From a bacterium (GTDB lineage: Bacteria; UBA10199; JAIBAG01), in the NCBI GenBank assembly GCA_019695305.1, contig JAIBAG010000016.1:1161-65160 (forward strand): a stretch of 64,000 nt of DNA. Direction: 5' to 3'. Made by a program: the position numbers and the translations under genes. The notes under the pieces are model-generated. The model saw nothing but the letters and a program-made list of their open reading frames with translations, ran no database searches and was not told the DNA's origin. Every line of letters begins with the position of its first letter. Position 1 is the first letter of the stretch. Shown one piece after another: positions 28,879 to 43,772 of the stretch.

Positions 28879-28879
28879 C

Positions 28880-29548: not shown

Positions 29549-30031
29549 ATGGGGAAGCCTTGATTCATCAATCATGGCGGGATAGCCTGTGATGCCATAG
29601 AGAGTGGTTTGATAGCCGCTTTTGTTTAATTTTTTGGTAAAGCGTTCTATATCTACAACAGCATTAAATTTTTTTTGTGCTGCTAAAAAAGCTAGTTTTA
29701 AAACCGCGTTTTGTTTGTCTTCGCAATTTTCAATAGTAATTTTACCGTTAGAGCGTTTGATGAGGGGTACTTGTTTATCACCTTTATCAAATAGAAAAAG
29801 ATTTTCTGCCTTTTTAAGAGTAATATTATAAGTTTCTTGAGCCGGTGCCACTGTGCTATCGTAACAAGATCCGCAATAAGTGCTGTGTTTTAAATTGTCG
29901 GGAATAATTTCTAAAAAGGAAAAAGAAGTATTGTCTAAAAACTGCGTGCAGTTTTTGCATAATATATGGTGGCACAAGCTACAGGTGTAGCTTTGTTTTA
30001 AATTAGATTTTAAACAGGAAGAACAAGTCAT
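29543..30031 (-). CDS. Cys-rich (zinc-ribbon-like) protein with YbjQ-like C-terminal region
   Basis: 162 aa. CxxC..CxxC..CxxC and CGSC motifs at the N-terminus. 4-nt overlap with the upstream MFS gene. Confidence 0.5.
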   Translation of the reverse strand: MTCSSCLKSNLKQSYTCSLCHHILCKNCTQFLDNTSFSFLEIIPDNLKHSTYCGSCYDSTVAPAQETYNITLKKAENLFLFDKGDKQVPLIKRSNGKITIENCEDKQNAVLKLAFLAAQKKFNAVVDIERFTKKLNKSGYQTTLYGITGYPAMIDESRLPHS

Positions 30032-31251
30032 TGTATTCTTTCGTAAGTTTTAAGTTCTGGGAAAAAACGAGACCAGGCCCAAACAATGCCCATGGTGGCA
30101 AATCCTCCCAGAACCACCGTAGGAACAGTACCTATAAGACTAGCAACGGCTCCCGATTCAAACTCACCCAATTCGTTAGAGGCACCAATAAACACCAAAT
30201 TAACAGCGCTCACGCGTCCGCGCATTTCTTCTGGAGTTTCCATTTGCACCATAATTCCGCGGATAACTACACTAATCATATCGGCTGCTCCTAAAATAAA
30301 AAGAGCTGAAAGCGACAGGAAGAAATTTTTGGATAAACCAAACACAACTGTAAAGACCCCAAAAATAAATACAGCCTTTAGCATGGTAAGGCCGGTTTTA
30401 TTTTTGATGGGATAATGAGCTAAATAGATAGCCATGAGAGCCGCGCCCACAGACGGAGAAGCGCGTAAAATTCCTAAGCCTTTGGCTCCGACATGTAAAA
30501 TATCGTTCGCATATACGGGTAATAACGCTACGGCTCCTCCAAAAAGAACGGCAAAAAGATCTAAAGAGATAGTCCCCAAGATAATTTTTTTATGAAATAC
30601 AAATCTCACGCCGGCAAGTAATTCATGCCAGCTATGCACTTCTTTGCGTAGCGGGGTTGGGCGTTTGGCAATAGGGTTTATGAGTAAATACGAGAGAAAG
30701 CGCATAGCAGTCACAATAATGAGAACTTCACGTGGACTGGAGGAAAAAGCGTAAATAAAGCCTGCTAAAGCAGGGCCTGCAATAAACGCAAGCTGCATGT
30801 TAGAAGAATTCCAGGCAACAGCATTTCCAAAATGATTTTTGGGAATCATATCGGGTAAAAATGAAAAACTAGCAGGCCCATCAAAAGCATATGCCGCTCC
30901 CAATATAAAGAGAAGAGGGTATACTAGCATGATGGGGAGTTTGCCGGTAAAATATAAAGCGGTCATCAACACCATCACAAAAAACTGAGCCAGGCGAGAG
31001 AGTAAAATGAGCAATCTACGGTCATAAATGTCGGCCAAGTGGCCTGCAGGAACCGTAAAAATAAATTTAGGTAAAAAGAGAGAAAGTCCAAGCCAACCTA
31101 AGTGGAGAGGGTTTTTGGTGACTTGGTAAAGATATTGCGCCATGGCAACAGCCAGCATTTGGTGTGAAGCTAAAGCCAAAAAACGTGCTGCCGAGTAATA
31201 GCGAAAATCGGGATGGCTAAAGGCTATAAAGGGGGATTCATTTCTTTCCAT
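30028..31251 (-). CDS. MFS transporter
   Basis: 407 aa, about 12 TMs. MFS loop motif GHLADIYDRR. Confidence 0.8.
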   Translation of the reverse strand: MERNESPFIAFSHPDFRYYSAARFLALASHQMLAVAMAQYLYQVTKNPLHLGWLGLSLFLPKFIFTVPAGHLADIYDRRLLILLSRLAQFFVMVLMTALYFTGKLPIMLVYPLLFILGAAYAFDGPASFSFLPDMIPKNHFGNAVAWNSSNMQLAFIAGPALAGFIYAFSSSPREVLIIVTAMRFLSYLLINPIAKRPTPLRKEVHSWHELLAGVRFVFHKKIILGTISLDLFAVLFGGAVALLPVYANDILHVGAKGLGILRASPSVGAALMAIYLAHYPIKNKTGLTMLKAVFIFGVFTVVFGLSKNFFLSLSALFILGAADMISVVIRGIMVQMETPEEMRGRVSAVNLVFIGASNELGEFESGAVASLIGTVPTVVLGGFATMGIVWAWSRFFPELKTYERIQ

Positions 31252-31339
31252 AAAGGCAGTTGTTGTAACAGGGGTAATAAGGGCCTTTTAAGCCTATTTT
31301 TCTTGAGAACTCACAGTTCCTGATATACACTCTCAACCC

Positions 31340-32278
31340 ATGGCGCTCAAGGCCCAAGTTGAAACATTTCCATTTGATAAATTACCCCGATTCACGCGTG
31401 CAGAATGCGAAGTGGTTTCGTTTATGGCCAAATATTTTCCAGTGTCGTTTGCCGATTCTGCCCTCCTAGATCAGCTGGGGCGTTCTCTTAAAAAATATTT
31501 TGGTGATGCATTTTCAATTAATTTTGAAAATATGGAAGAAATTGCACTCGATAATTTAAACGCAAAAATTGCTGGCAAGTGTGTTGTGGCTGCCGTTTCC
31601 TTGACTCCCTATACCAAAAAGCTTATCATCACCTCCGATTTAGACTTAACAACAGCTATTATCGACAAAGCACTGGGTGGTGGCGGTGAAGTTCCTGAGG
31701 TTCCGGGCGAGTTGACTGCATTAGAAGAGGGCGTTCTCGAATTTGTGGCAGCCAAGGTGTTAAAAGCGCTCAATGGTGTTACGGCTAGTCCTTCACATCG
31801 TTTTATTTTAGAATCGCTTGAAACGCGGCGTTTTAAGTCGGAAGTACTTTATGTGTCTACCGAACGTTTTTATGTTCTGCGATTTTTGGCTGCTGTAAAC
31901 AACGTGTCGGGAATTATTGCTGTTCATATTCCGTTGTCGCTTTTGTTTGAAATGAAAGGACGTAGCGATATTTTTGCAGCTAACGAAAATATGCGCTATC
32001 AAACGCAACGTCTAAAAGATTTTGATAATTTAAGAACGGTGTTGTGGGGTGAGTTGGGGCATGTTTTGTTACACCCTCAAGATTTAAACATTTTAGACCG
32101 TGGTGATGTTGTTTTATTTGATGAAACTGATGCAAGTTTGATGGATGGAAAAGTAAAAGGAACTATTAAACTGCGTTTTGGTGATGGACGTGGAGCCGGT
32201 TTTGAGGCTTTTGTTGAAGCAGATCATACGTCCGATTATCAGGTAAAATTGGGTTCGATGTTATCTAAAGAGGAGTGA
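31340..32278 (+). CDS. sctQ: T3SS sorting-platform protein, SctQ N-terminal-type (FliM/HrcQa-like)
   Basis: 312 aa. LPRFTRAE......., GELTALEEGVLEFVAAKVL pattern typical of SctQ/FliM. Followed by a separate SpoA-domain gene with a GTGA overlap. Confidence 0.6.
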   Translation: MALKAQVETFPFDKLPRFTRAECEVVSFMAKYFPVSFADSALLDQLGRSLKKYFGDAFSINFENMEEIALDNLNAKIAGKCVVAAVSLTPYTKKLIITSDLDLTTAIIDKALGGGGEVPEVPGELTALEEGVLEFVAAKVLKALNGVTASPSHRFILESLETRRFKSEVLYVSTERFYVLRFLAAVNNVSGIIAVHIPLSLLFEMKGRSDIFAANENMRYQTQRLKDFDNLRTVLWGELGHVLLHPQDLNILDRGDVVLFDETDASLMDGKVKGTIKLRFGDGRGAGFEAFVEADHTSDYQVKLGSMLSKEE

Positions 32279-32742
32279 GCGTGGCAAATAAAGATCCTTT
32301 TGATGAAGAATTAATGGCAGAGCTGGGTTTAGAGCCTGGGAAAGCGGCACCTGCTAAAGCTGCGGCTCCCAAGCCACCGGTTACACAACAACGTGCTCCC
32401 ATAACTCCTCCTGCCAGTCAGCCTAAAACAGCTGATCCGGTAACGGGTAAAACACAAATTGTAGAACGTCCCAAGCCAAGTGCGCCTCCTGCATCTCAAG
32501 TAAGCCCTGCCGATAACGAACAAGTGGCTTTGGATATGCCCGTACAGGTAGTGGCAGTATTGGGTAAAAAAACAATTACCTTAAAAGAAATTTTATCTCT
32601 TAAACAGGGCGAGCTTTTTGAACTAAAAAAATTACCTCAAGAACAAATTGATCTTGTTGCTAATGGTAAATTAGTAGCTCGCGGTGATTTGGTGTTAATA
32701 GACGGTAAAATGGGATTGCAGATTAAACAAATTATTAAATAA
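32275..32742 (+). CDS. T3SS SpoA-domain protein (SctQ-C / FliN / HrcQb-like)
   Basis: 155 aa. Pro/Ala-rich N-terminus. C-terminal SpoA domain (VQVVAVLGKKTITLKEILSLKQGELFELKK......DLVANGKLVARGDLVLIDGKMGLQI). Confidence 0.8.
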   Translation: MSVANKDPFDEELMAELGLEPGKAAPAKAAAPKPPVTQQRAPITPPASQPKTADPVTGKTQIVERPKPSAPPASQVSPADNEQVALDMPVQVVAVLGKKTITLKEILSLKQGELFELKKLPQEQIDLVANGKLVARGDLVLIDGKMGLQIKQIIK

Positions 32743-32765
32743 TTGTCGGTGATATTTTTTACTCC

Positions 32766-33083
32766 ATGATATATTTTTTAGCACAAATTGATTCTGCTGC
32801 CGCTACAACCGAAATGTCGTTTGGGTGGCTACTTGTTAAAACACTCTTGGCTTTGGCTTTTATTTTGGCATTGGCCTTTGTGTTTATTCGTTTTTTGCTT
32901 CCCAAACTTAACTTTGCCCAAAACATTAAGCAAAATGTGCCGGTTAAAATTTTATCGCGCACGGGTTTAGAAGCCCGCAAGGCTTTGTATGTGATTGAAG
33001 TAGGAAAAAAGAAAGCGCTTATTGCTGCTACCGATCACAATGTTACTAAAATTTTTGATTTAAACGACGACGACCTCAAGTAA
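32766..33083 (+). CDS. FliO-like single-pass membrane protein
   Basis: 105 aa. TM (LLVKTLLALAFILALAFVFIRFLL) followed by VKILSRTGLEARKALYVIEVGKKKALIAATDHNVTKI. This parallels E. coli FliO ..LKISASASLGARERVVVVDVEDARLVLGVTAGQINLL. Directly upstream of sctR. Confidence 0.6.
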   Translation: MIYFLAQIDSAAATTEMSFGWLLVKTLLALAFILALAFVFIRFLLPKLNFAQNIKQNVPVKILSRTGLEARKALYVIEVGKKKALIAATDHNVTKIFDLNDDDLK

Positions 33084-33088
33084 GGGGG

Positions 33089-33826
33089 ATGTTCATGATG
33101 AGTTTTGTTCCTTTTATGGCGCAGTTAGCACCGGCAGGTCAGCCCATTGCGCAGCCTGTAGTGATCCTCATCTTTTTAGTTATCTTGTCACTGGCACCTT
33201 TTTTGGTGATGATGATGACTTCCTTTGTTAAAATCACCGTTGTTTTTTCGCTCATCCGTACGGCTTTGGGTACGCAACAAATTCCTCCTAATCAAATTAT
33301 TACGGGACTAGCACTCATTCTTACTATTTATGTAATGATCCCGGTTGGTGCCGATATTTACGACAATGTAAAAAGTACCATTCATGATACGGGCAGTAAT
33401 CAACCCATTATGTCGATGGCTTCAATTGATGTTTTAAAGCAAGCATTTGATAAGGGTAAAGAACCCATGCGCGCTTTTTTAACCAAGCATGCTTCTACCA
33501 AAGACAGAAGCCTCTTTTTTAACATGGCTAAAAAATTGCGCGCTAACAGTACCAGCACATCCATTGCCGAAATTGGGGAAAACGATTTTATTGTACTGGT
33601 TCCGGCCTTTATGATTACTGAGCTTGCCGAGGCCTTTCAAATTGGTTTTATTTTGTTTTTACCCTTTTTAGTAATCGATATGGTGGTATCCAATATTCTC
33701 CTCGCTATGGGTATGTTCATGGTGTCGCCTGTGACCATTTCGCTTCCGTTTAAACTACTCTTGTTTGTACTGGTAGATGGATGGTATCTTATCACGCAGG
33801 GGCTTGTGATGGGGTATGTGAACTAA
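33089..33826 (+). CDS. sctR: T3SS export apparatus protein SctR (FliP family)
   Basis: 245 aa. MTSFVKITVVFSLIRTALGTQQIPPNQIITGLALILT. FLPFLVIDMVVSNILLAMGM. Confidence 0.93.
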   Translation: MFMMSFVPFMAQLAPAGQPIAQPVVILIFLVILSLAPFLVMMMTSFVKITVVFSLIRTALGTQQIPPNQIITGLALILTIYVMIPVGADIYDNVKSTIHDTGSNQPIMSMASIDVLKQAFDKGKEPMRAFLTKHASTKDRSLFFNMAKKLRANSTSTSIAEIGENDFIVLVPAFMITELAEAFQIGFILFLPFLVIDMVVSNILLAMGMFMVSPVTISLPFKLLLFVLVDGWYLITQGLVMGYVN

Positions 33827-33827
33827 T

Positions 33828-34094
33828 ATGGAATCGTATACAATTGCTATTAGTAAACAGTCGCTTTATTTGGTGCTCTTGCTTTCGGCGCCTCCTGTGT
33901 TGGCTGCCATGGTGGTGGGGCTACTTGTTAGTTTGGTGCAGGCTACTACGCAAATTCAGGAGCAAACTCTTACTTTTGTTCCTAAAATGGCAACAGTTAT
34001 TGTGGTATTGGCGCTTTTGGGGCCCTTGGGCATGGCCTACATGATTTCATTTACCAAAACTTTGCTAGAAACATTTCCAACGTATATTCATTAA
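33828..34094 (+). CDS. sctS: T3SS export apparatus protein SctS (FliQ family)
   Basis: 88 aa. Two TMs. LVSLVQATTQIQEQTLTFVPK motif. Confidence 0.9.
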   Translation: MESYTIAISKQSLYLVLLLSAPPVLAAMVVGLLVSLVQATTQIQEQTLTFVPKMATVIVVLALLGPLGMAYMISFTKTLLETFPTYIH

Positions 34095-34107
34095 CAAACT
34101 CTTTGCC

Positions 34108-34938
34108 TTGATCATGTCGGTACTAGAAAAAATTTTTGGAATTAATGTTGATTATTTTGCAGCCTTTATTACCTGGGCGTTGCTGCTTACCCGTATTTTG
34201 GTGGTATTGCTGCTTATTCCTTTTATGGGAGGAAAACTAGTGCCCGCCCGTTCGCGCCTGGCTACGGCTGCTTTAATGGCTACCTATTTATTTGTGGTTT
34301 TATACCCTTCACTAAAAACACAGTTCCCCGACGATAAAGCCATTTTATTTGCACTTTTTTTTAAAGAGATTTTTTTTGGGATGACTATTGGTTTTGTGAC
34401 CATGATGACTTTTTATGCCTTGGAAGGTGCAGGACGTATTGTGGATATGCAGCGTGGTACGGCCAATGCCATGCTTTTTATGCCGCAACTGGGCCAGGTA
34501 TCTATTTTTGGTTTGTTTAATTACTGGTTAGCGGTGGCTTTCTTTTTATCCATTGGTGGTCATCGGTATTTTTTTGAGGCATTTTTTTCGGCCTATAAAA
34601 TATTACCTCTTTTAACCTTGCCGCAAATAGCACCGGGATTTTCTCCATTTTTGGAATTTTTTATTAAACTTTCGGCCAACGTTTTGATTATTGCCATTCA
34701 ATTATCGGCACCCGTGCTTATTGCCATTTTACTGGTAGATGTGGTGTTGGGGATTGCCAATAAAATGGCCCCGCAAATTAACGTGTTTGAGTTAGGTTTT
34801 GCCGTAAAAGGATTTGTAGGGCCTCTTATGATATATGTATCACTTTTGGTTTTGGTATCTCAAATGGATGTGGTGATGAAAACCATGATCACCTCCATTG
34901 ATATGCTGGCCAAACTGTTAGCCCATAATAGCCCCTAA
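34108..34938 (+). CDS. sctT: T3SS export apparatus protein SctT (FliR family)
   Basis: 276 aa polytopic. GGRIVDMQRG and LGIANKMAPQINVF motifs. Start is TTG at 34108 or ATG at 34114. Confidence 0.9.
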   Translation: MIMSVLEKIFGINVDYFAAFITWALLLTRILVVLLLIPFMGGKLVPARSRLATAALMATYLFVVLYPSLKTQFPDDKAILFALFFKEIFFGMTIGFVTMMTFYALEGAGRIVDMQRGTANAMLFMPQLGQVSIFGLFNYWLAVAFFLSIGGHRYFFEAFFSAYKILPLLTLPQIAPGFSPFLEFFIKLSANVLIIAIQLSAPVLIAILLVDVVLGIANKMAPQINVFELGFAVKGFVGPLMIYVSLLVLVSQMDVVMKTMITSIDMLAKLLAHNSP

Positions 34939-35079
34939 GGGCTATAAGCCTGGGGTGCAGGCTCCTCTTTTTCAATGTTTTCGAGGGTTTTGGCCCTCCC
35001 TCGCTTTGACCTCCTTCCGGTTTCATGCTTATAAGTATTTGAAATTATTATATATTATTTATTGTCTTTGGGCGCAATT

Positions 35080-35095
35080 TGGCATGGAGGTTGCT
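35080..35095 (+). promoter_or_regulatory. Sigma-54 (-24/-12) type promoter upstream of the acidic-protein/chaperone genes
   Basis: TGGCAT-GGAGG-TTGCT, near-perfect consensus. AT-rich tract upstream. 52 nt upstream of the ATG at 35147. Confidence 0.6.
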
Positions 35096-35146: not shown

Positions 35147-35986
35147 ATGTCAGACGTCATTATTCCCGGTAACACCACAAACGAAGAACTCTACCAGATT
35201 TACAACGAAGTTTTTGGTGGCGATTTAAGTGCTATGGAAGCGGCTTTTACGGCCGGAGATGCTCCCGAAGGTTACGATTTAGTGGATTTGTTTAATGCCA
35301 TTGTTCACTTTAGCGGAAGTTTGCCTGATGCCGTGGTAGCCTACGATTCCACTTTTCCTGAAGATATTAGTGAGGAAGATGCCGAACAAATTGCGGTGGC
35401 TATGCAGTACTGGATGACACAAAACCCTAACATGGAAGCCATGGGCACAGAATTTTTAAACTGGTTGGGTACAGAGTTTAGTTTTGACCCTGCTAGTTTA
35501 GAATCTCAAGTTGAAGATTTTATTAATAGCTACAAAGATAGCGGTGGTACTTTAGGCCCTTATCCTTCTCCTGAAGAGGGAGAAACCGTATTTAGTTTGC
35601 TAGATGTAGATGACTTGACCGATCTCATTCATTACGCGTTAACCGCCTATTCGTCTCCCGCGGCCGTAATGAATCTTTTAATTTTAGGTTTTCAAACCCG
35701 CGTGCGTGACATGACCGATGCCGTGGTGGGTGCGTTTGATGATGTGTCCAGAGAATTGGAAGACATTACTGCAAATTTTCCTGATGATCCTCTTGCCGAT
35801 GGTTATCAATATGATGTGTTTCAAGCGCAAACCAAAGTGGAAAACTTGCGCAATGCCATGCAAACGCTTACCAACATTGTAAAAACCATTCAGGACATGA
35901 TGCAGAACATGATTCAAACCCAGGCCGCTACCAACGAAAGTTCGCAAAACACTTTGGAACGGCTCAATAGCTATATTGCGTCATAA
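35147..35986 (+). CDS. Acidic hypothetical protein, candidate T3SS substrate (tip, translocator or gatekeeper class unresolved)
   Basis: 279 aa, strongly acidic, no TM. C-terminal coiled coil (QTKVENLRNAMQTLTNIVKTIQDMMQNMIQTQ). AAGGAG RBS. Followed by a class II-like TPR chaperone. Confidence 0.6.
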   Translation: MSDVIIPGNTTNEELYQIYNEVFGGDLSAMEAAFTAGDAPEGYDLVDLFNAIVHFSGSLPDAVVAYDSTFPEDISEEDAEQIAVAMQYWMTQNPNMEAMGTEFLNWLGTEFSFDPASLESQVEDFINSYKDSGGTLGPYPSPEEGETVFSLLDVDDLTDLIHYALTAYSSPAAVMNLLILGFQTRVRDMTDAVVGAFDDVSRELEDITANFPDDPLADGYQYDVFQAQTKVENLRNAMQTLTNIVKTIQDMMQNMIQTQAATNESSQNTLERLNSYIAS

Positions 35987-36008
35987 GGGTAGTTTTTGAA
36001 ATTATTAC

Positions 36009-36038
36009 AAAAGGGCGGCGGGTTAGCCGCCCTTTTTT
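36009..36038 (+). terminator. Rho-independent terminator
   Basis: AAAAGGGCGGC-GGGTTA-GCCGCCCTTTTTT. Confidence 0.8.
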
Positions 36039-36095
36039 GTTTATTGGCTGAGGTAACGATAAATGATATCCTTAAGTACTAATAATGAGGGAATC

Positions 36096-36641
36096 ATGCA
36101 GAAGCGTGTAGGGGTTAAATTACCGTCTTTTTTAGATAAAAAGCCCGATCTTAAAAAGAAGATTGCCGAAGTGGTTGGTCAAACTCCACTCGCCAAGCGT
36201 AAACAAGATATTGAAAAGCTTAAACAGTTTTTTACAGGCGAGTTAAGCTGGGTAGAGGTAAAGCAACTGCCCCGCCGTTATATTAATGAAATGGCTAAAA
36301 TTGCCACCATGGAATTTAAACTGGGTCATTTAAAGAGAGCCGAAGCTATTTTTAAGGGTTTGTGTGTGATTGATCATAAAACAGCCTATCATCACCGTGC
36401 GTTAGGTGCTGTTTATCAAAAACAGAAAAATTTTGAGAGTGCAGTAGAGAAATACAATATGGCGTTAGTAGCTAAAGAAAACGACATTTCCACACTGGTA
36501 AACCGTGGCGAATGTTATTTGCACTTAAACAATAAAGTACAAGCTTTGGCCGATTTAAATGCAGCCATCAATTTAGATAAAAATGGGAAAAATCCATGGG
36601 CTAACCGAGCCCGTGTTTTGGTGAAGGGTTTAAAACAATAA
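36096..36641 (+). CDS. Class II T3SS chaperone (LcrH/SycD/IpgC-like TPR)
   Basis: About 181 aa from the ATG at 36096 (GAGGGA SD). FKGLCVIDHKTAYHHRALGAVYQ parallels SycD FQALCVLDHYDSRFFLGLGACRQ. Three TPRs. Confidence 0.75.
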   Translation: MQKRVGVKLPSFLDKKPDLKKKIAEVVGQTPLAKRKQDIEKLKQFFTGELSWVEVKQLPRRYINEMAKIATMEFKLGHLKRAEAIFKGLCVIDHKTAYHHRALGAVYQKQKNFESAVEKYNMALVAKENDISTLVNRGECYLHLNNKVQALADLNAAINLDKNGKNPWANRARVLVKGLKQ

Positions 36642-36653
36642 AACAGGAATTTT

Positions 36654-37478
36654 ATGTCATCACCTATTACTTACAGCACATCCGATCTTGAGACAATCCA
36701 CCAGCTAGAAACTTATTTGGCGCAAAGCGGGGTAAGCGAAGCCGATATTGACGTTATTATGGCGGGTATCGACAATAATAGCGATGTTGATATCCCCGAT
36801 GAGTTGAAAAATGCCTACCTCAATTTGACCATGCTTAAATTGTGGCAGCTTATTTCGCCCGATACTTATCAGTCGGCTTATGGGCAAATTGGCCCTGATG
36901 TAAATCGTGGCGATGCCGATGATTTATTTGCCGCCATGGACGATTATATGAGTCCAGAGTTGGCCCAGCTTTTAGAAAAACTTATTAACGATTCTCCCGA
37001 ACTAATGGCTTTGGCAGCCGATACCGATGGTGATCCCGAGACTACAGCTCAATCTGTTTTTGATGCTATTGCCAAAGCGCGCGAGACTACTGAAGAAGGG
37101 GAAGATTTGGAAAATGTGTGGAGCGATCATGCAGGTCACGATGTTGTAGAAGATTTGGGGCTGCAGGGTACTTTTTATGAATCGGTGTTAGATCAAGCCG
37201 ATACCTTTCAAAATATTCAGGGCATTGCCATGCAAGAAATTGCCAAGTACCAAGATTTTTTAACCAACCTTTTTAGCGAAGGTGTTAAAAGTGGTGATGT
37301 GACGGTTGAAGAAGCCCAGGCCCAGGCCGGGCAGGTAAGTGCCATGATGGAAATGTGGACGGGTATTTACAACCAGGCTCAAGATCAGGTAAATAATTTG
37401 TATCAGTTTGTGGGAGCTGTTACCAAAGAACATGCCGACTTGTTAGATAATTTGGCTCGTAACTTGGCTATGCGTTAG
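36654..37478 (+). CDS. Acidic hypothetical protein, second candidate T3SS substrate
   Basis: 274 aa, strongly acidic, no TM. Same size and organisation as 35147-35986. The C-terminus ..LLDNLARNLAMR is reminiscent of needle-family ends. Confidence 0.6.
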   Translation: MSSPITYSTSDLETIHQLETYLAQSGVSEADIDVIMAGIDNNSDVDIPDELKNAYLNLTMLKLWQLISPDTYQSAYGQIGPDVNRGDADDLFAAMDDYMSPELAQLLEKLINDSPELMALAADTDGDPETTAQSVFDAIAKARETTEEGEDLENVWSDHAGHDVVEDLGLQGTFYESVLDQADTFQNIQGIAMQEIAKYQDFLTNLFSEGVKSGDVTVEEAQAQAGQVSAMMEMWTGIYNQAQDQVNNLYQFVGAVTKEHADLLDNLARNLAMR

Positions 37479-37480
37479 TA

Positions 37481-38137
37481 GTGTGGGGTAATTTGGGTAT
37501 GGAAAAGGAATTGGAAAATATTGCGTCCACCAAAAAGAAGGACAATAAAAAAGGCGAAAATCGTCTTATTTCGCCCGATCCCGTTCGTAAAAAGTTTATT
37601 ACCGAATTACTGCACGCTTTTGCTGCCCGTAAAATTAGTTTTGCCGAATTAACAAGGTTGCATCCCAAAAAAATAAAACAGATTGCCGAAATTGGTTTTG
37701 TTAAACTGCGCCATGGCCGTTACAAAGACGCCCGCCGAATTTTTGAAGCTCTAACTTTTTTAGACCACAAAAATTCGTTTCACCATTTGGCTTTGGCCGG
37801 TGCATATCAAAAACTGGAATTGTTTGTGGATGCCATTTATCAATACACCGAAGCGTTGCGGATAGAGCCCGATAATATCAACGCTATGGTTAATCGTGGT
37901 GAATTGTATTTGCGCCGCAAAAGTTATCGCAAGGCTGCCGAAGATTTTAGAAACGCTATTTTAAAAGATGAAACCGGCAAAGACCGTTTTGCCAACCGCG
38001 CTAGGTCGCTGGTGATTGCTATAAAACGTTCGCTTGCTCAAGATAAAGAAGAAGCGTTAAAACCCAAGAAAATCCCTACCTCACCGGCTAACAAAGCCAC
38101 TCTCTCGCCTTTTAAGTTTAATATGAAGAAGAAGTGA
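37481..38137 (+). CDS. Class II T3SS chaperone (LcrH/SycD-like TPR), second copy
   Basis: 218 aa from GTG at 37481, or 212 aa from ATG at 37499. IFEALTFLDHKNSFHHLALAGAYQ. TPRs. Basic C-terminal tail. Confidence 0.75.
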   Translation: MWGNLGMEKELENIASTKKKDNKKGENRLISPDPVRKKFITELLHAFAARKISFAELTRLHPKKIKQIAEIGFVKLRHGRYKDARRIFEALTFLDHKNSFHHLALAGAYQKLELFVDAIYQYTEALRIEPDNINAMVNRGELYLRRKSYRKAAEDFRNAILKDETGKDRFANRARSLVIAIKRSLAQDKEEALKPKKIPTSPANKATLSPFKFNMKKK

Positions 38138-38217
38138 ATGGTGGATAGTGGATAGTTAATAGTAAAGAGGGAAATACTATTTCCATCCACCATAAACCAT
38201 CCACTATCCACTTCTTC
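38127..38217. terminator. Long imperfect palindrome between convergent genes (bidirectional terminator candidate)
   Basis: GTGGATAGTGGAT (38141-38153) pairs with ATCCACTATCCAC (38199-38211), plus ATGGTGGA/TCCACCAT and GAAGAAG/CTTCTTC. Confidence 0.5.
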
Positions 38218-39639
38218 TTACTCATCATCATCTTCTCCCACCGACGAATCGATAATTCCGTATTTAATGAGAAGATTACGCAGATGCTTGCGGTCAATCT
38301 GGGCTTCGCGGCTGGCTTTAGAAACATTGTTTTTATTGCGTTTCAAAAGATCTTCTAAATAATCTTTTTCAAACACTTCTACAATCTTTTGTTTGGCTTC
38401 TTTAAACGGCAGTGAGTTATCAACCAAGTCTTTTGCGGATGATTTTACCTCACCAGCACCTTGAATTTCGCTAAAAATAAACTGCAGGGTGTTGCCATCA
38501 ATAACACCGTTATTAGCAAACGATACAGCACGTTCCAAAATATTGTTCAGTTCGCGCACGTTGCCGGGCCAAGGATAGCGTTGTAAAATTTTAAGCGCAT
38601 CATCTTCTACTTTGCTGGCATAAAATGACCCATCCGGCTTTTTGTTGTAGCGCGCATTAGAGAGTACACGTTCTACAATAAGTGGAATATCATCAGTGCG
38701 TTCACGTAATGGAGGGAGTTGGATCTTAACCACCGAAAAGCGGTAGTACAGATCTTCACGAAAAGTTCCTTTTTTTACTTCTTCTTTTAAATCACGATTG
38801 GTTGCGCACAACACACGGACATCCAGTTGGATGGACTGTGTAGAGCCTACGCGTTTAATTTCGCGTTGTTCTAGCGCCCGTAAAAGTTTGGGTTGTAAAT
38901 CGAGCGTTAACTCGCCAATTTCGTCCAAAAATATGGTGCCGCCATTAGCCGATTCAAAAGCACCTTTTCTATCTTTTAAAGCACCAGTGAACGATCCTTT
39001 CATGTGTCCAAAGAGTTCCGATTCAATTAAATTGGGAGCTACGGCCGAGCAATCAAACACAATAAAAGGTTTGTCTTTTCTTACGGAGTTTTCATGAATG
39101 GCACGAGCTACCAGTTCTTTTCCGGTACCAGTTTCACCCTGAATGATGACGGTAGCCATGGTGGGCGAGATACGTTCTAAAATACCAAAAATCTGGCGCA
39201 TTTTTAAACTTTTACCCACCATAGAGCCAAACTCATTATTTTTGGACGGCTCCATTTGTACTTTTTCGTTAAATGCCTGGTATTCAATTTTAGTGCCGCC
39301 AATAGTAATCACATCGCCCGGCGACAAAAAGGCTTCTTTTACCTTCATGCCATTAATAAAAGTACCGTTGGTGGATCCTAAATCGCGCAACAGATACGAA
39401 TCGGATGTGGCCTCAATTTTCATGTGGTTGCGCGACACGGTTTTATCGTTAATCACAATATCGTTATCGCTTTTTTTACCGATGGTGAGTTCTTTCTTTT
39501 TACCTAGTTCGTGTTTTACTTTGGGACTTGGGCCATCAATAACAACCAACATGCATTTACGTAAAGAAACAACATCTTTAAAATCTTCTGCCGATAAAAT
39601 TTCGGTTTTATTGCCAATTTCGTTTTCTGTATCCGACAT
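38218..39639 (-). CDS. Sigma-54-dependent transcriptional activator (bEBP) with N-terminal FHA domain
   Basis: About 473 aa from the ATG at 39639. FHA (LTIGKKSDNDIVINDKTVSRNHMKIE....YLLRDLGSTNGTFING). AAA+ Walker A GETGTGKE. Sigma-54 contact loop ESELFGHMKGSFTGA. GGTIFLDEIGEL. C-terminal Fis-type HTH. Confidence 0.9.
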   Translation of the reverse strand: MSDTENEIGNKTEILSAEDFKDVVSLRKCMLVVIDGPSPKVKHELGKKKELTIGKKSDNDIVINDKTVSRNHMKIEATSDSYLLRDLGSTNGTFINGMKVKEAFLSPGDVITIGGTKIEYQAFNEKVQMEPSKNNEFGSMVGKSLKMRQIFGILERISPTMATVIIQGETGTGKELVARAIHENSVRKDKPFIVFDCSAVAPNLIESELFGHMKGSFTGALKDRKGAFESANGGTIFLDEIGELTLDLQPKLLRALEQREIKRVGSTQSIQLDVRVLCATNRDLKEEVKKGTFREDLYYRFSVVKIQLPPLRERTDDIPLIVERVLSNARYNKKPDGSFYASKVEDDALKILQRYPWPGNVRELNNILERAVSFANNGVIDGNTLQFIFSEIQGAGEVKSSAKDLVDNSLPFKEAKQKIVEVFEKDYLEDLLKRNKNNVSKASREAQIDRKHLRNLLIKYGIIDSSVGEDDDE

Positions 39640-39640
39640 A

Positions 39641-41746
39641 TTATTCCCTTTGTAACGGAGCTGTAATTTCAAGTCCTTTAGCTCCCATGGTAATGGTTTT
39701 TGTCCAGGTTCTATAGCCAGGCATGGTAATAACAATAGTATGGCTTGTGCCGGCTGCCAAATTGGTGGTGATAACAGGTGTCACACCAGCTTTGCGCCCA
39801 TCAATTGTGACAGCACCTCCGCGTGGGTTGGAATCCACACGCAATTTGCCGCTACCACTTTTTTCCACAACGGTATCGGGAGAGGGAGTGACAGGGGGTT
39901 TATTGGGTGTGGGCTTAGGTGTTGGAGGCGGAGTCACAGGTTCTGGCTTTTTGTCCAAAGTAAAACTGAGTGTTTTTACTTCTCCTCCAGCAATGGTGAG
40001 TGTGTTTGATTGTGGCAAATAGCCATTTTTTGAAACCTGAATAATATAGGTGCCCGGTTTTAATGTAATACCACTAAGATTTTCCTGTTTTTTATCGTTA
40101 ATGGTAACACTTGCTCCATCAACATTGGTACTGATTGTGAGCGTTGCCTCTACAAACTGTGGGTCGGGAATAAAAATAAAAGTATAGGGTTTTAAACTGC
40201 TGGCTGCTGTGATGGCCTGTTCAATGGGTAGGTATTGGGGTAACACTAGTTTTAGCGTAAAAGTTTTTCCTTCAGGAATATCGTTGAGCTGTGCCGGTGT
40301 TTTAAGCCCGGTATCGGCATTATCTACCATAATCATGGCCCCTGGTGGGGTAGAGGCTATTTTAATATCCACTAAAACAGGAGCAGGGGGTGTTTCATCA
40401 ACAGGTGGAGGAGTGACTGGAGGTAGTGGAGGTTCTTCTACAACAAGAGGTGGCTCTTCTACAACAGGAGGCTTTTCTACAACCGGGGTTTTGTTTCTTA
40501 GATAGAAAAAATATGAAAGTAGCCCGCCTAAAACAATAAAGACCACCATCCACAATACTAAACGAATGGCAGAAGAAGACGAGTTTTGAATGTGGGCATC
40601 GGTGGAGGTGTTTTCTTTAATGGGCATGATCCCGTCGCCATGATCTAAATCTTCGGGCTTAATATCGCTTTCGGGTTTGGTGGTATCTTGTAAAATAGGC
40701 AATTCCACGCTTTCGTTATGAGCCAAAATTTCTTCCTGGCTTTTCATTTTATTTATCAGCATGGAGCGTGTTTGATTTTCAGTTTCACGATCTATTTTGG
40801 TTTGCTGCTTGCGAATTTTAAGTTCGGTTTGAAATGTTTTTTGAATAAAGCTACCCAACTGCTTGGGAGAAAAATCGTCGTATTTAGAATAAAGTAATTT
40901 GGTTAAAGCAATTTGCAAATCACCAGCGCTCTCAAAACGGTTTTCGGGGTTTTTGGCCAAAGCTTTAATAAGCAACGGGCGCACTTCCTTGGGGATTTTA
41001 GAATTTAAATTTTCATCGGAAAAAACAGAGTCTCTAATTTTGGCCAAAATATCAAACTGACTTTCTCCAGTAAAAAGGCGCTCGCCTGTAATCATTTCGT
41101 ACAACAAGATGCCGGTGGAATAAATATCGGTTCTGCCGTCAATAGAATTACCCGAAGCCTGCTCAGGAGACATATAGGTAACCTTGCCTTTTAATATACC
41201 GGCTGTGGTGTGAGATACATTCATGGCCGCTTTGGCAATACCAAAGTCCACAATTTTGGTTTCACCTTCAAAAGAAATTAAAATATTTTGAGGTGAAATA
41301 TCCCGGTGTACAATTTCAAGAGGCTGACCATGGTCGTCACGTTTGCTGTGGGCGTAATCAAGCCCGCTGGCTATTTCGGAAGCCATAAACAAAGCGAGAG
41401 GTAGAGGGATTGATTGGTTAAGTTCTTTAGAACGATTAATAACTTCGCGTAAATTCACACCATCAATATATTCCATGGAAATGTAATAATCGTCACCCAC
41501 CTTGCCCAAATCGTAAATTTGCACGATGTTGGTATGCGAAAGCTTAACAACAAGCTTGGCTTCGTCGGTGAGCATGGCAATAAATTCTTTATCGGCGGAA
41601 TAATTGGGGAGAATTTTTTTGATAGCGAGCAGCTTTTCAAAACCGTCTACGCCAAAGGTTTTGGCCTTGTAAATTTCGGCCATGCCGCCAACGGCGATGC
41701 GCTCCATCAAGAAATATTTGCCAAATGGTTTAGGTTCAAAAGCCAT
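39641..41746 (-). CDS. Ser/Thr protein kinase with TM and periplasmic PEGA domains
   Basis: 701 aa. Hanks motifs GGMAEIYKA, AIKK, HRDISPQN, DFGIAK and YMSPEQ. TM LVLWMVVFIVLGGLLSYFFYL. Pro-rich linker. PEGA-like IASTPPGAMIMVDN and VDSNPRGGAVTIDGRKAGVTP. Its stop is 1 nt from the bEBP start. Confidence 0.9.
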   Translation of the reverse strand: MAFEPKPFGKYFLMERIAVGGMAEIYKAKTFGVDGFEKLLAIKKILPNYSADKEFIAMLTDEAKLVVKLSHTNIVQIYDLGKVGDDYYISMEYIDGVNLREVINRSKELNQSIPLPLALFMASEIASGLDYAHSKRDDHGQPLEIVHRDISPQNILISFEGETKIVDFGIAKAAMNVSHTTAGILKGKVTYMSPEQASGNSIDGRTDIYSTGILLYEMITGERLFTGESQFDILAKIRDSVFSDENLNSKIPKEVRPLLIKALAKNPENRFESAGDLQIALTKLLYSKYDDFSPKQLGSFIQKTFQTELKIRKQQTKIDRETENQTRSMLINKMKSQEEILAHNESVELPILQDTTKPESDIKPEDLDHGDGIMPIKENTSTDAHIQNSSSSAIRLVLWMVVFIVLGGLLSYFFYLRNKTPVVEKPPVVEEPPLVVEEPPLPPVTPPPVDETPPAPVLVDIKIASTPPGAMIMVDNADTGLKTPAQLNDIPEGKTFTLKLVLPQYLPIEQAITAASSLKPYTFIFIPDPQFVEATLTISTNVDGASVTINDKKQENLSGITLKPGTYIIQVSKNGYLPQSNTLTIAGGEVKTLSFTLDKKPEPVTPPPTPKPTPNKPPVTPSPDTVVEKSGSGKLRVDSNPRGGAVTIDGRKAGVTPVITTNLAAGTSHTIVITMPGYRTWTKTITMGAKGLEITAPLQRE

Positions 41747-41851
41747 ATCTATTGTAGGGGCTTACGTAGCCCCCTCCATCGGCAATCCCACAGAGACAAA
41801 TTTGTGAGCCGGATGGAGTCTCCCCGTCAACGCCCCGTTGGGGCTGGTTAT

Positions 41852-42508
41852 CTAAAAGAAAAATAAAATCACACCAATAACAAGCACCACCACCAAGGCA
41901 ATAAGACCATAAATGATGAGCATTTCAGGGCTTTTGTTAGGCCCTTTATTTCCAACAATTTTATTTACGTTTACCACATGCTGGGTAACGGTTATCTCGC
42001 CATCGGTAGTTTCTTTTTTATCGTCAACAGGTTTAGCCTCGTCTTTAAACAGAGCTGGGTTTAAAGGGATGGTAACCTGTAAAATGTTGTCTCGCGTTAA
42101 ATTGGCCACCTTTAAGGGGTCGCCACTTTTTAAATCTTTTATTTGTAGTGCGGCCATTCGCGAAATAGCCAAAAACGCCGGAGCAATTTTTTCTCCATTT
42201 TTAAGCGTTAAATCAATTCTTAAGAGGGAAGGATCGGTTTTTAAATTGACCTTCCGGTAATAAATGACCTCAATATCATCCACCGGGATTTGGATATTTT
42301 TTTTCCATAGTTTGCTTTTATCAAGCAAGAGCTTCCAGTCGGTTTTATCGCTTAAACCCTGAAAATTATCCTGTTGGCCACCATCTTCCTGTTCCCGGTC
42401 TTTTTGAGACTCGGCAGAGGCGTCCACACGCAGATAATCGGTTTCCCTTAATTTATCGATACGCTCAACCACAAGCCTCCCAACAGAAATAATCCCGCTA
42501 AATGGCAC
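41852..42508 (-). CDS. Hypothetical C-terminally anchored membrane protein
   Basis: 218 aa. C-terminal TM MLIIYGLIALVVVLVIGVILFFF. Upstream of, and on the same strand as, the kinase gene. Confidence 0.55.
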   Translation of the reverse strand: MPFSGIISVGRLVVERIDKLRETDYLRVDASAESQKDREQEDGGQQDNFQGLSDKTDWKLLLDKSKLWKKNIQIPVDDIEVIYYRKVNLKTDPSLLRIDLTLKNGEKIAPAFLAISRMAALQIKDLKSGDPLKVANLTRDNILQVTIPLNPALFKDEAKPVDDKKETTDGEITVTQHVVNVNKIVGNKGPNKSPEMLIIYGLIALVVVLVIGVILFFF

Positions 42509-42636
42509 AAGTTTCTTATCGAAAAATGGTTATATTCTAACGGAAAATTTTTCGTAAGAGATTAAAATTGTACGGTTAGTTTGGTAAAACCGCAAGGAAA
42601 AACATTGGGTTGTAAATCTGTGGGGAGTCGATTCCC

Positions 42637-42957
42637 CTAAGGCTGGTTACCATATTTAAGTTTGATGCCAATATCCATCAAACTACCGGAAATGAAGGTA
42701 TCGATGAAAACCAGTGTTATGACAACAAGCATAGGGGTAAAATCGATGCCGCTACTGTAGAAAAAGCGGGGTAAAACGCGGCGGAGTTTGGAAAATACGG
42801 GCTGGGTAGCACCATATAAAAAGCGCACAATAGGGTTATAGGGATCGGGGCGCACCCAGCTGATGATAATGGCACCCACAATAACAAAGGTGTACATGTT
42901 GATGAGCATGCTTAAGACTTTGGCTAGAGCGATGAGTAGATTTCCTAAAATGGGCAT
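42637..42957 (-). CDS. yggT: YggT-family membrane protein
   Basis: 106 aa. YggT pattern (IISWV.PDPYNPIV.FL...T.P....R..LP...GIDF.P). Linked to proC and yggS. Confidence 0.8.
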   Translation of the reverse strand: MPILGNLLIALAKVLSMLINMYTFVIVGAIIISWVRPDPYNPIVRFLYGATQPVFSKLRRVLPRFFYSSGIDFTPMLVVITLVFIDTFISGSLMDIGIKLKYGNQP

Positions 42958-43772
42958 TAGCGTAACTCCTTGGCGCGTTGGGTAGCCCGTTTAACGCAGG
43001 CCACAACTGTTTCTTTAAACCCTTTTTCGGCCAGTTTTGCCAGGCCGGCTTCGGTGGTGCCCCCTTTGGAGGCTACTTTGGCAATGAGGTTTTCGGCCGT
43101 GTCTTTAGAACGAATAAAAAGTTCGGTAGCTCCTTGTATTGTTTTTATGGCCAAATTCTTTGCTGTATCAGGACTAAGCCCGGCTTCGATACCTCCGCTA
43201 ATCAGCGCATCGATAAAACTATAAACATAAGCAGGGCCACTGCCCGAAAGGCCGGTGACGGCATCGAGCAAATTCTCGTCTTTTACTTCCAGCACATCGC
43301 CTACCGATGCAAAAATCTTTTTCGTTATTTGTTTGTCGGCGGGCTTGCAGTTGTGGTTGGCATAAAAGGCTGTGGCACCCAAGCCAATTAAAGCCGGGGT
43401 ATTGGGCATGAGGCGCACCACGCGGCAATGGCCGCCAAAATGAGTCTCAAAAGCGCCAGTCGTTTTACCCGCTAAAATAGAGAGGATAAGGTGTTTGGGA
43501 GTTACAGAGGAACGTACTGCTGCAGACAATTCATCCAAATTCTGTGGTTTTACAGCAATAAGAACAGCAGCAGTTCCTTTAAAAACATCGGTTATCTGAG
43601 AAGCGAGTGTAATCTTATATTTTTTCTTTAATTTTTTAGCTTTGGTTTGGTCTACATCAAAACCAATAATATCACTCCCTTTAAAAAGAGCTTTTTTCGA
43701 TTTTGTTTTGGTGGTGATGCCCGAAAGAATGGCCTCGGCCATGTTTCCTAATCCAATGATGCCTAATTTCAT
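42957..43772 (-). CDS. proC: Pyrroline-5-carboxylate reductase
   Basis: Start at MKLGIIGLGNMAEAI (43772; the ORF track's longer N-terminus is unlikely). MPNTPALIG and GSGPAY motifs. Confidence 0.88.
   Translation of the reverse strand: MKLGIIGLGNMAEAILSGITTKTKSKKALFKGSDIIGFDVDQTKAKKLKKKYKITLASQITDVFKGTAAVLIAVKPQNLDELSAAVRSSVTPKHLILSILAGKTTGAFETHFGGHCRVVRLMPNTPALIGLGATAFYANHNCKPADKQITKKIFASVGDVLEVKDENLLDAVTGLSGSGPAYVYSFIDALISGGIEAGLSPDTAKNLAIKTIQGATELFIRSKDTAENLIAKVASKGGTTEAGLAKLAEKGFKETVVACVKRATQRAKELR

Follow-up and report, generated by a model that had tools for sequence, protein, structure and literature searches.

A PEGA-domain Ser/Thr kinase and an FHA-type sigma-54 activator as the candidate master switch of a sigma-54/sigma-28-wired type III secretion locus in UBA10199

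Which regulator switches on the T3SS (type III secretion system) encoded on contig JAIBAG010000016.1 of the bacterial phylum UBA10199 (GenBank assembly GCA_019695305.1), and is it the kinase/activator operon that lies at the end of the T3SS cluster? We analyzed a 64,000-nt stretch of this contig (positions 1,161 to 65,160 of the forward strand; hereafter, the window), in which the gene of a Hanks-type Ser/Thr kinase directly precedes that of a bacterial enhancer-binding protein (bEBP), a predicted sigma-54 activator with an N-terminal FHA domain. A first-pass annotation of the window had proposed that a periplasmic signal acts through this kinase and this activator on sigma-54-dependent T3SS expression. 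Based on the comparison with related loci, sigma-54 dependence of T3SS expression is well supported, and the pair is the leading candidate for the T3SS master switch. For the full circuit, in which the kinase/FHA-bEBP operon switches on a two-tier T3SS cascade, we estimate a probability of roughly 0.5, owing to the balance of the neighborhood, promoter and detached-genome points for and against it.

The genes of the putative operon and their landmarks are the following:

38218-39639, minus strand: FHA-type bEBP, 473 residues (FHA, AAA+ and helix-turn-helix (HTH) domain matches)
39604-39606, minus strand: codon of Thr12 of the bEBP
39298-39486, minus strand: FHA domain of the bEBP
38719-39222, minus strand: AAA+ domain of the bEBP
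38980-38997, minus strand: GSFTGA loop of the bEBP
38275-38382, minus strand: HTH of the bEBP
39641-41746, minus strand: Hanks-type Ser/Thr kinase, 701 residues (Pfam Pkinase at residues 15-272, E 4e-41)
~40931-41704, minus strand: kinase domain
~40496-40585, minus strand: transmembrane (TM) helix of the kinase
~39662-40384, minus strand: three periplasmic PEGA domains of the kinase
41852-42508, minus strand: tail-anchored membrane protein, 218 residues, of no known family, first gene of the putative operon

By its motifs, the bEBP is an intact predicted sigma-54 activator. Pfam searches matched FHA (PF00498) at residues 52-114 (E 2.5e-20), Sigma54_activat (PF00158) at residues 140-307 with all 168 model positions covered (E 2.3e-69), AAA_lid_14, and a Fis-type HTH (PF02954, HTH_8) at residues 420-455, the latter with 22.2 bits against a cut-off of 22. 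An R-finger region is present, as are a Walker A motif (GETGTGKE) and a Walker B-type motif (FLDEIGE), which are both invariant in an alignment of 120 orthologs, the source of all the bEBP residue counts given here. The sigma-54 contact loop reads GSFTGA in the window and in 90/120 orthologs and GAFTGA in 30/120, with residues F217, T218, G219 and A220 invariant, and the recognition helix IDRKHLRNLL is unchanged as far as the Bradymonadia. Pfam found no receiver (REC) domain (Response_reg) in the protein; its N-terminus is an FHA domain, so it is not an NtrC-type response regulator. The first-pass annotation had described an FHA domain in the place of the receiver and an intact GSFTGA loop, and both descriptions were correct. 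The rpoN gene is not in the window.

The phosphothreonine (pThr) pocket of the FHA domain is predicted to be near-canonical but not textbook, because the canonical GR arginine is replaced by Lys55 in 119/120 orthologs (Ile or Ala in outliers and in Bradymonadia), whereas S69, R70, H72, S89, T90, N91 and G92 are kept in 120/120. According to a PDB search, the nearest solved FHA domains by sequence are those of Rv1747, GarA (including its pThr22 form) and OdhI, all of them kinase partners. An AlphaFold2 model of the bEBP (mean pLDDT, the per-residue confidence score, of 86), which informs on domain folds and tail disorder and not on pThr docking, placed the FHA beta-sandwich at residues 24-127 (pLDDT ~90) and left residues 1-23 disordered (pLDDT <50). 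This tail varies in sequence and length except for Thr12, which is kept in 119/120 orthologs within the motif T-x-[LI]-[LI]. Thr12 is thus a likely target of the partner kinase, and the combination of an invariant Thr, hydrophobic residues at +2/+3 and a disordered tail preceding the FHA domain suggests a phospho-switch of the GarA/OdhI type.

The loss of the GR arginine also admits another explanation, namely that the FHA domain of the bEBP has become a phospho-independent regulatory or oligomerization module and that the co-transcribed kinase has other substrates. The near-universal Lys, together with the Ile or Ala of the outliers and the Bradymonadia, agrees with this idea. Nevertheless, the other four pocket positions are invariant, Lys is still positively charged, all 30 UBA10199 genomes examined have the operon with the kinase, and T-x-[LI]-[LI], the motif conserved in the tail, is typical of FHA ligands. 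Hence, we consider a phospho-independent module very improbable, and we continue with the FHA domain as a putative reader of pThr.

The kinase has a single TM helix at residues ~388-417, a Pro-rich linker and three PEGA stretches (Pfam E 1.6e-32). Its motifs GGMAEIY, LAIK, HRDISPQN (catalytic-loop pattern HRDxSPQN), VDFG and MSPE, as well as the activation-loop residue Thr180, are invariant in 25 orthologs; judged by these motifs, the kinase is catalytically competent throughout. Its TAA stop codon occupies 39643-39641, a single base follows (T at 39640), and the bEBP ATG begins at 39639; this gap of 1 nt in the window is of 3-10 nt in relatives. The earlier description of a PEGA-domain transmembrane Hanks kinase that stops 1 nt before the bEBP start was accurate in every part. 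A TTG start at 39735, proposed by the ORF finder, was rejected as the bEBP start and attributed to in-frame upstream sequence. The 218-residue protein, which matched no Pfam or NCBIfam family, has a C-terminal TM helix at residues 192-218, and its gene lies 105 nt upstream of the kinase gene on the same strand; orthologs occur directly upstream of the kinase in loci L003-L007, L010, L014, L024, L068 and L131. A promoter and terminator scan of 37900-43000 gave nothing exceeding shuffled controls.

To evaluate the conservation of the operon and of the promoters, we compared the window with ~75 related loci, including 46 further T3SS loci fetched via the FliA-like sigma factor described below, and synteny was established by searching the fetched loci with the window proteins (tblastn). 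Close homologs of the bEBP, with 64-80% identity, number in the hundreds, all of them in metagenome-assembled genomes labelled Deltaproteobacteria or "bacterium", which genome scans and isolate names (e.g., HK-STAS-UBA10199-2) place in the uncultured phylum UBA10199. In every UBA10199 locus with upstream sequence (30/30 genomes), the kinase gene lies directly upstream of the bEBP gene on the same strand. The conservation of the operon and the Thr12 motif together support a link from the kinase to the FHA domain. The next relatives of the bEBP, with 50% identity over the full length, belong to Lujinxingia and other Bradymonadia (predatory Myxococcota); there, the ortholog lies between two PEGA kinase genes, one divergent and one convergent (L029, L032 and L034), and keeps the HTH helix and the N-terminal Thr. 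T3SS genes were not seen within 10 kb of these three Bradymonadia orthologs. When genomes were scanned with an alignment of the FHA domain only, generic FHA domains dominated the matches, and the gain was limited to four UBA10199 orthologs and a set of distant FHA-bEBPs.

What would this activator act on? The T3SS cluster adjacent to the operon and the putative promoters of the window are as follows:

~15.8-38.1 kb, plus strand: T3SS cluster (Pfam, NCBIfam and TM scans)
19635, plus strand: small conserved gene between the pyruvate kinase and needle-like genes
19943-19971, plus strand: sigma-28-type promoter ACAACTT-N15-CCGATAA, before the needle-like gene at 20095
20095-34938, plus strand: block of T3SS apparatus genes (domain searches)
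20095-20631, plus strand: Gly/Ser/Tyr-rich needle-like protein, with a needle/flagellin-like C-terminus (...MVRNMRG)
20758, 21189 and 22149, plus strand: TPR chaperone, SctJ and small membrane protein
22889-22901: IHF-like site TAAGTTATTGAAA, upstream of the 22950 promoter
22950-22965, plus strand: sigma-54-type promoter TGGCATGTGAAATGCT, 35 nt before the ATG of the FliA-like sigma factor gene
23000-23830, plus strand: FliA/WhiG-like (sigma-28 family) sigma factor (Pfam Sigma70_r2 and r4)
23837, 24367, 25337, 26023 and 27459, plus strand: SctI-like, FliG-like, SctL, SctN and SctO
31340 and 32275, plus strand: SctQ-like proteins (FliM/FliN homologs)
32766, 33089, 33828 and 34108, plus strand: FliO-like, SctR, SctS and SctT
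35032-35044: IHF-like site TAAGTATTTGAAA, upstream of the 35080 promoter
35080-35095, plus strand: sigma-54-type promoter TGGCATGGAGGTTGCT of the late operon, whose first ATG (35147) follows after 51 nt
35147-38137, plus strand: late T3SS operon, two acidic proteins interleaved with two TPR chaperones
35147-35986, plus strand: acidic protein of 279 residues, C-terminus ...LNSYIAS
36063, plus strand: TPR chaperone 1
36654-37478, plus strand: acidic protein of 274 residues, with a needle/flagellin-like C-terminus (...LARNLAMR)
37481-38137, plus strand: TPR chaperone 2, LcrH/SycD-like (TIGR02552, 71 bits, below the cut-off of 104.8)
7468-7483, plus strand: sigma-54-like promoter TGGCATCGCATTTGCT, followed after 83 nt by an IS200-like Y1-transposase/HTH gene (7567-8541)

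The number of raw sigma-54 matches in the window, 28 against 36 expected with at most two mismatches, is not above chance and was discarded as evidence; therefore, positional conservation was tested instead. We scanned the region 25-220 nt upstream of the FliA-like gene for GG-N10-GC with at most two mismatches to TGGCAC-N5-TTGCW. A match was present in 39 of the 41 loci with enough sequence, in the conserved form TGGCAY-N6-TGCW, against a background of 5.7% of random 510-nt windows in T3SS loci, and 40 of 100 plus-strand matches of the scan lie at this one position. The spacers of these promoters differ widely among loci. At the position of the 35080 promoter, downstream of SctT, TGGCAY-N5-TTGCT recurs in L001 (perfect), L003, L004 and L006, and L005 has a degenerate TGACAT. 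Sigma-54-dependent T3SS expression, as the first-pass annotation had it, is therefore backed by the comparison. Its count of three sigma-54 promoters stands in part: the sites at 7468, 22950 and 35080 are all intergenic and correctly oriented, and those at 22950 and 35080 are conserved in relatives, but the window as a whole is not enriched in such matches. The gene downstream of the 7468 promoter is absent from the fetched loci.

Upstream of both the 22950 and the 35080 promoters there is an IHF-like site (YAANNNNTTGAWW) at ~35-50 nt and G-rich inverted repeats at ~95-120 nt, a layout that corresponds, by its sequence elements, to the classic enhancer/IHF/promoter arrangement.

The gene behind the 22950 promoter brings in a second tier. 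The FliA-like gene is found at the same position in 44 loci; its best NCBIfam match is TIGR02479 (FliA_WhiG), with 139.8 bits, below the cut-off of 189.6. Many relatives carry a motif of the sigma-28 type, G[CA]AACTTT-N13-15-CCGATAA, before the TPR/needle-like genes as well as behind SctJ and behind SctT, and in many loci the position after SctT carries GCAACTyy-N14-CCGATAA instead of a sigma-54 promoter. Considering the late-operon promoter in 42 loci, 18 are of the sigma-28 type, 8 of the sigma-54 type and 1 (L001) has both in tandem, and in 15 neither was detectable. The strict pattern GCAACT-N14-19-CCGATA has no match in the window, where the 19943 site requires a relaxed -35 element. An excess of CCGATAA in the window (22 copies against 8 expected) was set aside because most copies lie in coding sequence. 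We infer that the sigma-28-type promoters are read by the FliA-like factor and, on the evidence of these predicted promoters, the T3SS is wired as a flagellum-style sigma-54 to sigma-28 cascade. The circuit proposed by the first-pass annotation thus included the sigma-54 step and missed the second tier, that is, the FliA-like sigma factor and the sigma-28-type promoters.

That this particular bEBP activates the T3SS promoters is plausible from its neighborhood. In 23/30 genomes, the 10 kb downstream of the bEBP gene contain T3SS genes, namely LcrH-like chaperone genes and, in most cases, SctT through SctN behind them, and there is no other bEBP gene in the window or in most T3SS clusters. Several observations weigh against the circuit. 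The pair is detached from the T3SS in 7/30 genomes. The upstream yggS-like, proC and yggT genes are equally conserved (~21/25 loci), and the adjacency of the bEBP and the T3SS may therefore reflect a gene order that was inherited. The T3SS cluster of one UBA10199 subclade contains a REC-type NtrC bEBP gene of its own (REC/AAA+/HTH, with a GAFTGA loop), which diverges from the FliA-like gene:

L121:6291-7691, minus strand: REC-type bEBP gene in a T3SS cluster
L122:8100-9470, minus strand: REC-type bEBP gene in a T3SS cluster
L124:7921-9351, minus strand: REC-type bEBP gene in a T3SS cluster
L127:5391-6761, minus strand: REC-type bEBP gene in a T3SS cluster

One genome with such a REC-type bEBP, JAHFSU01, retains the FHA-bEBP elsewhere (L018), and there the FHA-bEBP must have a role independent of T3SS adjacency. 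With no T3SS nearby, FHA-bEBPs with 40-50% identity are also frequent in Myxococcota, Competibacteraceae, Lentisphaerae and other groups, and some of them are accompanied by a divergent kinase gene. Additionally, the loss of the GR arginine could weaken pThr binding by the bEBP FHA domain, and SctV, SctU and the secretin (SctC) are absent from the 64-kb window, the system being either split across loci or devoid of outer-membrane parts, as reported for the T3SS* of Myxococcus (PMC10433427).

Most of these observations are those expected if the pair were a phylum-wide general regulator with envelope, division or developmental targets, its adjacency to the T3SS being inherited and the T3SS promoters being served by another bEBP. 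The upstream synteny, the detached pairs, the REC-type bEBPs together with the FHA-bEBP retained in JAHFSU01, and the wide distribution of FHA-bEBPs away from T3SS genes would all follow, and the phylum-wide identity of 64-80% with an HTH invariant to the Bradymonadia fits a core regulon. However, the detached genomes yielded no conserved alternative sigma-54 promoter beside the pair, the only site being in L010, before a gene encoding a MopE-motif protein; most T3SS clusters have the conserved sigma-54 promoter yet no bEBP gene of their own; and G-rich inverted repeats of the type found at the T3SS promoters also precede the kinase operon. We regard a general regulator as possible, though doubtful. 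In L019, the stretch between the bEBP and the T3SS is longer and contains two more sigma-54 promoters, before genes of no known family. The first-pass annotation had named conservation of the pair in relatives lacking the T3SS as evidence that would speak against a T3SS role; because five of the seven genomes with a detached pair carry the T3SS cluster on another contig, such relatives were not what the comparison found. The Bradymonadia also carry T3SS export genes, reported to be induced during predation (PMC7460792).

The G-rich repeats just mentioned, with the other inverted repeats associated with the promoters and the operon, are listed below:

27358, 41757 and 42622: strict GGGG-N6-9-CCCC copies, the first located after SctN, the second 10 nt ahead of the kinase ATG and the third between yggT and the gene that opens the operon
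20025, ~22830 and 34984: relaxed GGGG-type repeats near the promoters at 19943, 22950 and 35080
34982-35003: inverted repeat CGAGGG-N10-CCCTCG, upstream of the 35080 promoter
~22797-22845: repeats GGGGGGTATAAACCC and CCAGTCTCA, upstream of the 22950 promoter
38126-38219, strandless: long inverted repeat between the genes of TPR chaperone 2 and the bEBP

The three strict copies are the only ones in the 64-kb window, and all are intergenic. Across 44 T3SS loci, 35 of 47 copies lie at three inter-operon regions, and a GGGG-type copy is found 105-180 nt upstream of the -24 element in 15/37 loci, against 1.2% of random windows. In the loci with a REC-type bEBP, TGGTG-N8-CACC occupies the equivalent place instead of GGGG-N8-CCCC. 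The GGGG-N6-9-CCCC element could be the enhancer of the FHA-bEBP, which would imply autoregulation. It was considered as the bEBP binding site (an upstream activating sequence) and set aside, because an RNA hairpin is equally possible: the element occurs irrespective of promoter type, and each copy follows closely on a stop codon. It may also be the site of another regulator. A second element, GAGTCTCA/TGAGACTC, is common to the promoters at 7468 and 22950.

The long inverted repeat at 38126-38219, whose arms read AAGAAGAAGTG...GGTGGATAGTGGATAG and CTATCCAC...CACTTCTTCTT, includes the 80-nt spacer between the convergent bEBP and TPR chaperone 2 genes and overlaps both stop codons; it is likely a bidirectional terminator. 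The convergence of the pair with the last T3SS chaperone gene (37481-38137, plus strand) had been noted in the first-pass annotation.

Taken together, the proposed circuit, a single Ser/Thr-phosphorylation step ahead of a two-tier transcription cascade, would operate as follows. The three periplasmic PEGA domains would detect a cue from the envelope or from contact, and autophosphorylation of the kinase would take place on Thr180. As the conservation of the tail suggests, it would then phosphorylate Thr12 in the T-x-[LI]-[LI] motif of the bEBP, and pThr12 would be bound by the FHA domain of the same or of a neighboring protomer, as in GarA/OdhI; alternatively, the FHA domain may dock onto the phosphorylated kinase. 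The assembly state of the AAA+ ring would change as a result, and phosphorylation could be activating or inhibiting. The active hexamer, presumably of this bEBP, would remodel the sigma-54 holoenzyme at two sites: 22950, which would drive the FliA-like gene and the SctI, SctL, SctN and SctO genes, and 35080, which in this subclade would drive the secreted-substrate/chaperone operon too. Finally, the FliA-like factor would read the sigma-28-type promoters, here that at 19943 and, in other subclades, also those after SctJ and after SctT, as the conservation of the motif suggests. A broader evolutionary interpretation, according to which an early-branching, flagellum-like UBA10199 injectisome keeps the sigma-54/sigma-28 hierarchy and its master activator is gated by the kinase through a GarA-style pThr-FHA switch instead of a two-component receiver, is put forward only tentatively.

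The same kinase may have a second target in the T3SS cluster itself. The features concerned are two:

15850-18174, plus strand: FHA/TM/2x PEGA/TPR protein (Pfam domains; TM helix at residues 216-242)
5105-5980, plus strand: weak PP2C-like region within an ORF of 2183 residues at 128-6679

The first of these bears out the earlier mention of a second FHA/PEGA protein at 15850, in that it combines an FHA domain, one TM helix, two PEGA domains and TPR repeats. Its orthologs lie upstream of the TPR-SctJ genes in ~28 loci, so that the T3SS cluster conservedly begins with this gene. The N-terminus of the protein matches Yop-YscD_cpl, the YscD cytoplasmic FHA family. It is possibly an SctD-like, phospho-regulated component of the basal body, on which the kinase might, speculatively, act post-translationally.

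The PP2C domain that had been assigned to the giant ORF is less firm. The NED, GDVR, SDGLW and DNINV motifs are visible by eye in the translation and NCBIfam Stp1_PP2C matches over ~85 residues with E 2e-4, but its 20.9 bits fall far below the cut-off of 230, the best PDB match, PppA (6jkv), extends over ~85 residues with E 0.026, and the ORF, whole or in three pieces, had no Pfam match at E values up to 1. A divergent PP2C is possible, because the hallmark motifs are visible despite the sub-threshold profiles. The ORF also has a TM helix at residues 1568-1596, before the PP2C-like region (~1655-1950), and a faint GNAT-like stretch after it, and no counterpart was found in any related locus. 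Consequently, the complete kinase/phosphatase/FHA set of the first-pass annotation holds for the kinase and the FHA proteins, but its phosphatase is a marginal match in an ORF that is not syntenic with the T3SS.

These proteins raise the question of whether the kinase acts mainly post-translationally, with the FHA-PEGA-TPR protein as its substrate and with the FHA domain of the bEBP tethered to the phosphorylated kinase, so that the activator is sequestered or inhibited. The conservation of the FHA-PEGA-TPR protein in the T3SS cluster and its YscD-type N-terminus, the periplasmic PEGA domains that it shares with the kinase, and the best PDB match of the PP2C-like region, PppA of the Pseudomonas aeruginosa type VI secretion system (T6SS), all point in this direction, for which precedents of threonine-phosphorylation control have been reviewed (PMC10482370). 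Nevertheless, this explanation leaves the invariant Thr12 motif of the bEBP unaccounted for, and relatives show no synteny between the giant PP2C-like ORF and the T3SS. It is also compatible with transcriptional control through the bEBP rather than exclusive of it. As the main role of the kinase, we consider it unlikely, and we retain the transcriptional circuit as the preferred one.

Regarding the remaining content of the window, the T3SS gene order is strongly conserved across the fetched loci, and that of the late operon next to the bEBP recurs in L001 and L003-L006, among others. SctN matches EscN and FliI. The two acidic late-operon proteins (35147 and 36654) and the needle-like protein at 20095 have no TM helix and belong to no known family; all three are probably secreted, as components of a filament or tip or as translocators. 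In this genome only, a pyruvate kinase gene (18221-19627) and a PAP2/unknown/MFS block (28865-31251) are inserted into the cluster; the flanking T3SS genes are contiguous in relatives. None of the 56 window ORFs that were scanned against Pfam matched a T6SS family, no tRNA and no Rfam family were found in the window by tRNA and Rfam scans, and the remainder of the window consists of housekeeping genes. An ORF of 359 residues (14699-15778, minus strand), divergent from the FHA-PEGA-TPR gene and without a family match, is kept at the same position in L084, L109 and L124 and is therefore probably T3SS-associated. The gene at 7567-8541 encodes an IS200-like Y1-transposase domain fused to a C-terminal HTH, and a perfect 22-bp palindrome, ATGAGTCTCAcTTGAGACTCAT, lies at 7369-7390, ~100 nt upstream of the 7468 promoter. 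Repeats of the GAGTCTCA type are also present in L087, L089, L091 and L094.

If the circuit is correct, it would be the first kinase/FHA-controlled T3SS transcription circuit and would offer the first mechanistic handle on FHA-type bEBPs, for which the orthogroup provides a clean test case: a fixed operon kinase, a single invariant candidate acceptor (Thr12) and few candidate promoters. The conserved sigma-54 promoter, the FliA-like gene and the sigma-28-type promoters indicate, moreover, that flagellum-like wiring is possible in a non-flagellar T3SS, which bears on the evolution of injectisomes from flagella, and the alternation of sigma-54- and sigma-28-type promoters at the late operon, in tandem in L001, represents a natural experiment in promoter turnover. 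For UBA10199, which has no cultured member, the system is a hint of a lifestyle that depends on contact and is possibly predatory or host-associated, as in Bradymonadia and Myxococcus. Our literature search found no paper on a UBA10199 T3SS, no description of the combination of FHA, sigma-54, T3SS and kinase, and none of the route by which the pThr signal reaches the AAA+ ring in FHA-bEBPs. In the literature found, the ingredients are known singly and the combination, a PEGA-kinase/FHA-bEBP operon beside a sigma-54/sigma-28-wired T3SS, is undescribed.

Among known systems, sigma-54 to sigma-28 hierarchies control the flagella of Pseudomonas, Vibrio and Campylobacter, with FleQ, FlrA or FlgR acting first and FliA second. 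The present locus resembles them in having a bEBP/sigma-54 tier followed by a FliA/CCGATAA tier for late secreted subunits, and in keeping FliG-, FliM/N- and FliO-like genes. In contrast to flagella, it encodes an SctJ lipoprotein, SctO, SctL and LcrH/SycD chaperones, and the window contains no rod, hook or motor genes; moreover, the input of the flagellar activators is a REC domain or cyclic di-GMP, whereas Ser/Thr phosphorylation is proposed here.

FHA-type sigma-54 activators have been known for two decades from genome surveys and from Myxococcus xanthus genetics, and those of M. xanthus are said to be tied to fruiting-body development and not to secretion. The bEBP studied here is like the M. 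xanthus proteins in its FHA/AAA+/HTH architecture and in its presumed eukaryote-like kinase input (Jelsbak, Givskov, Kaiser 2005 PNAS, as cited in PMC11980068). For the M. xanthus proteins, the literature found reports neither a conserved operon of kinase and bEBP genes nor an N-terminal Thr motif or a promoter cascade. Its conserved Thr in a disordered N-terminal tail before the FHA domain, and the closest solved FHA domains by sequence, relate it to GarA and OdhI. In these two proteins, which regulate metabolic enzymes, a Hanks kinase phosphorylates a tail Thr, and the FHA domain of the same protein binds it; in the PknH-EmbR pair, EmbR is a SARP-type transcription factor with an FHA domain, and its gene adjoins the kinase gene (PDB 2kfu, 6i2p, 2kb3 and 2fez for these systems). 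Unlike GarA, OdhI and EmbR, the present protein is a sigma-54 activator, and its GR arginine is a Lys.

The T6SS PpkA/PppA/Fha1 set and the chlamydial PknD-CdsD pair share with this locus a membrane Hanks kinase, a PP2C (here marginal) and FHA proteins beside a secretion machine, and the FHA-TM protein heading the cluster resembles SctD/CdsD in position and in N-terminal fold family. Those systems act post-translationally on machine parts, whereas here one FHA protein is a transcription activator and there are no T6SS genes.

In the Pseudomonas syringae cascade, HrpRS acts with sigma-54 on hrpL, whose product controls the T3SS (PMC3105312, PMC5263251). The two arrangements have in common a sigma-54 promoter of the bEBP-dependent type before an alternative-sigma gene and promoters of that sigma before T3SS operons, in or beside the cluster. 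HrpR and HrpS, however, lack an N-terminal sensory domain, their control being exerted by HrpV and HrpG, whereas the bEBP here has an FHA domain and a Hanks kinase partner. HrpL is an ECF sigma factor that reads hrp boxes, as opposed to a FliA/WhiG-like factor with TAAA/CCGATAA-style promoters, and in the window one T3SS operon has, unlike in the HrpRS cascade, its own sigma-54 promoter directly. The present system thus works like the HrpRS-HrpL cascade and is not a member of it, because its sigma factor is FliA/WhiG-like and not ECF and its bEBP has an FHA domain.

Further parallels in sigma-54 control are the T3SS of Desulfovibrio vulgaris, which is controlled by sigma-54 and the EBP DVUA0100 (PMC4641369), and the sigma-54/CtcC regulon of Chlamydia (PMC7482065), where T3SS operons or effector genes likewise stand behind sigma-54 promoters and the EBP gene is within the cluster or close to it. 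The loop of DVUA0100, a single-component EBP, is an atypical GVATGV, and CtcC is a REC-type protein with no DNA-binding domain. Neither is gated by a kinase or an FHA domain, and neither is accompanied by a cluster-encoded sigma-28 tier.

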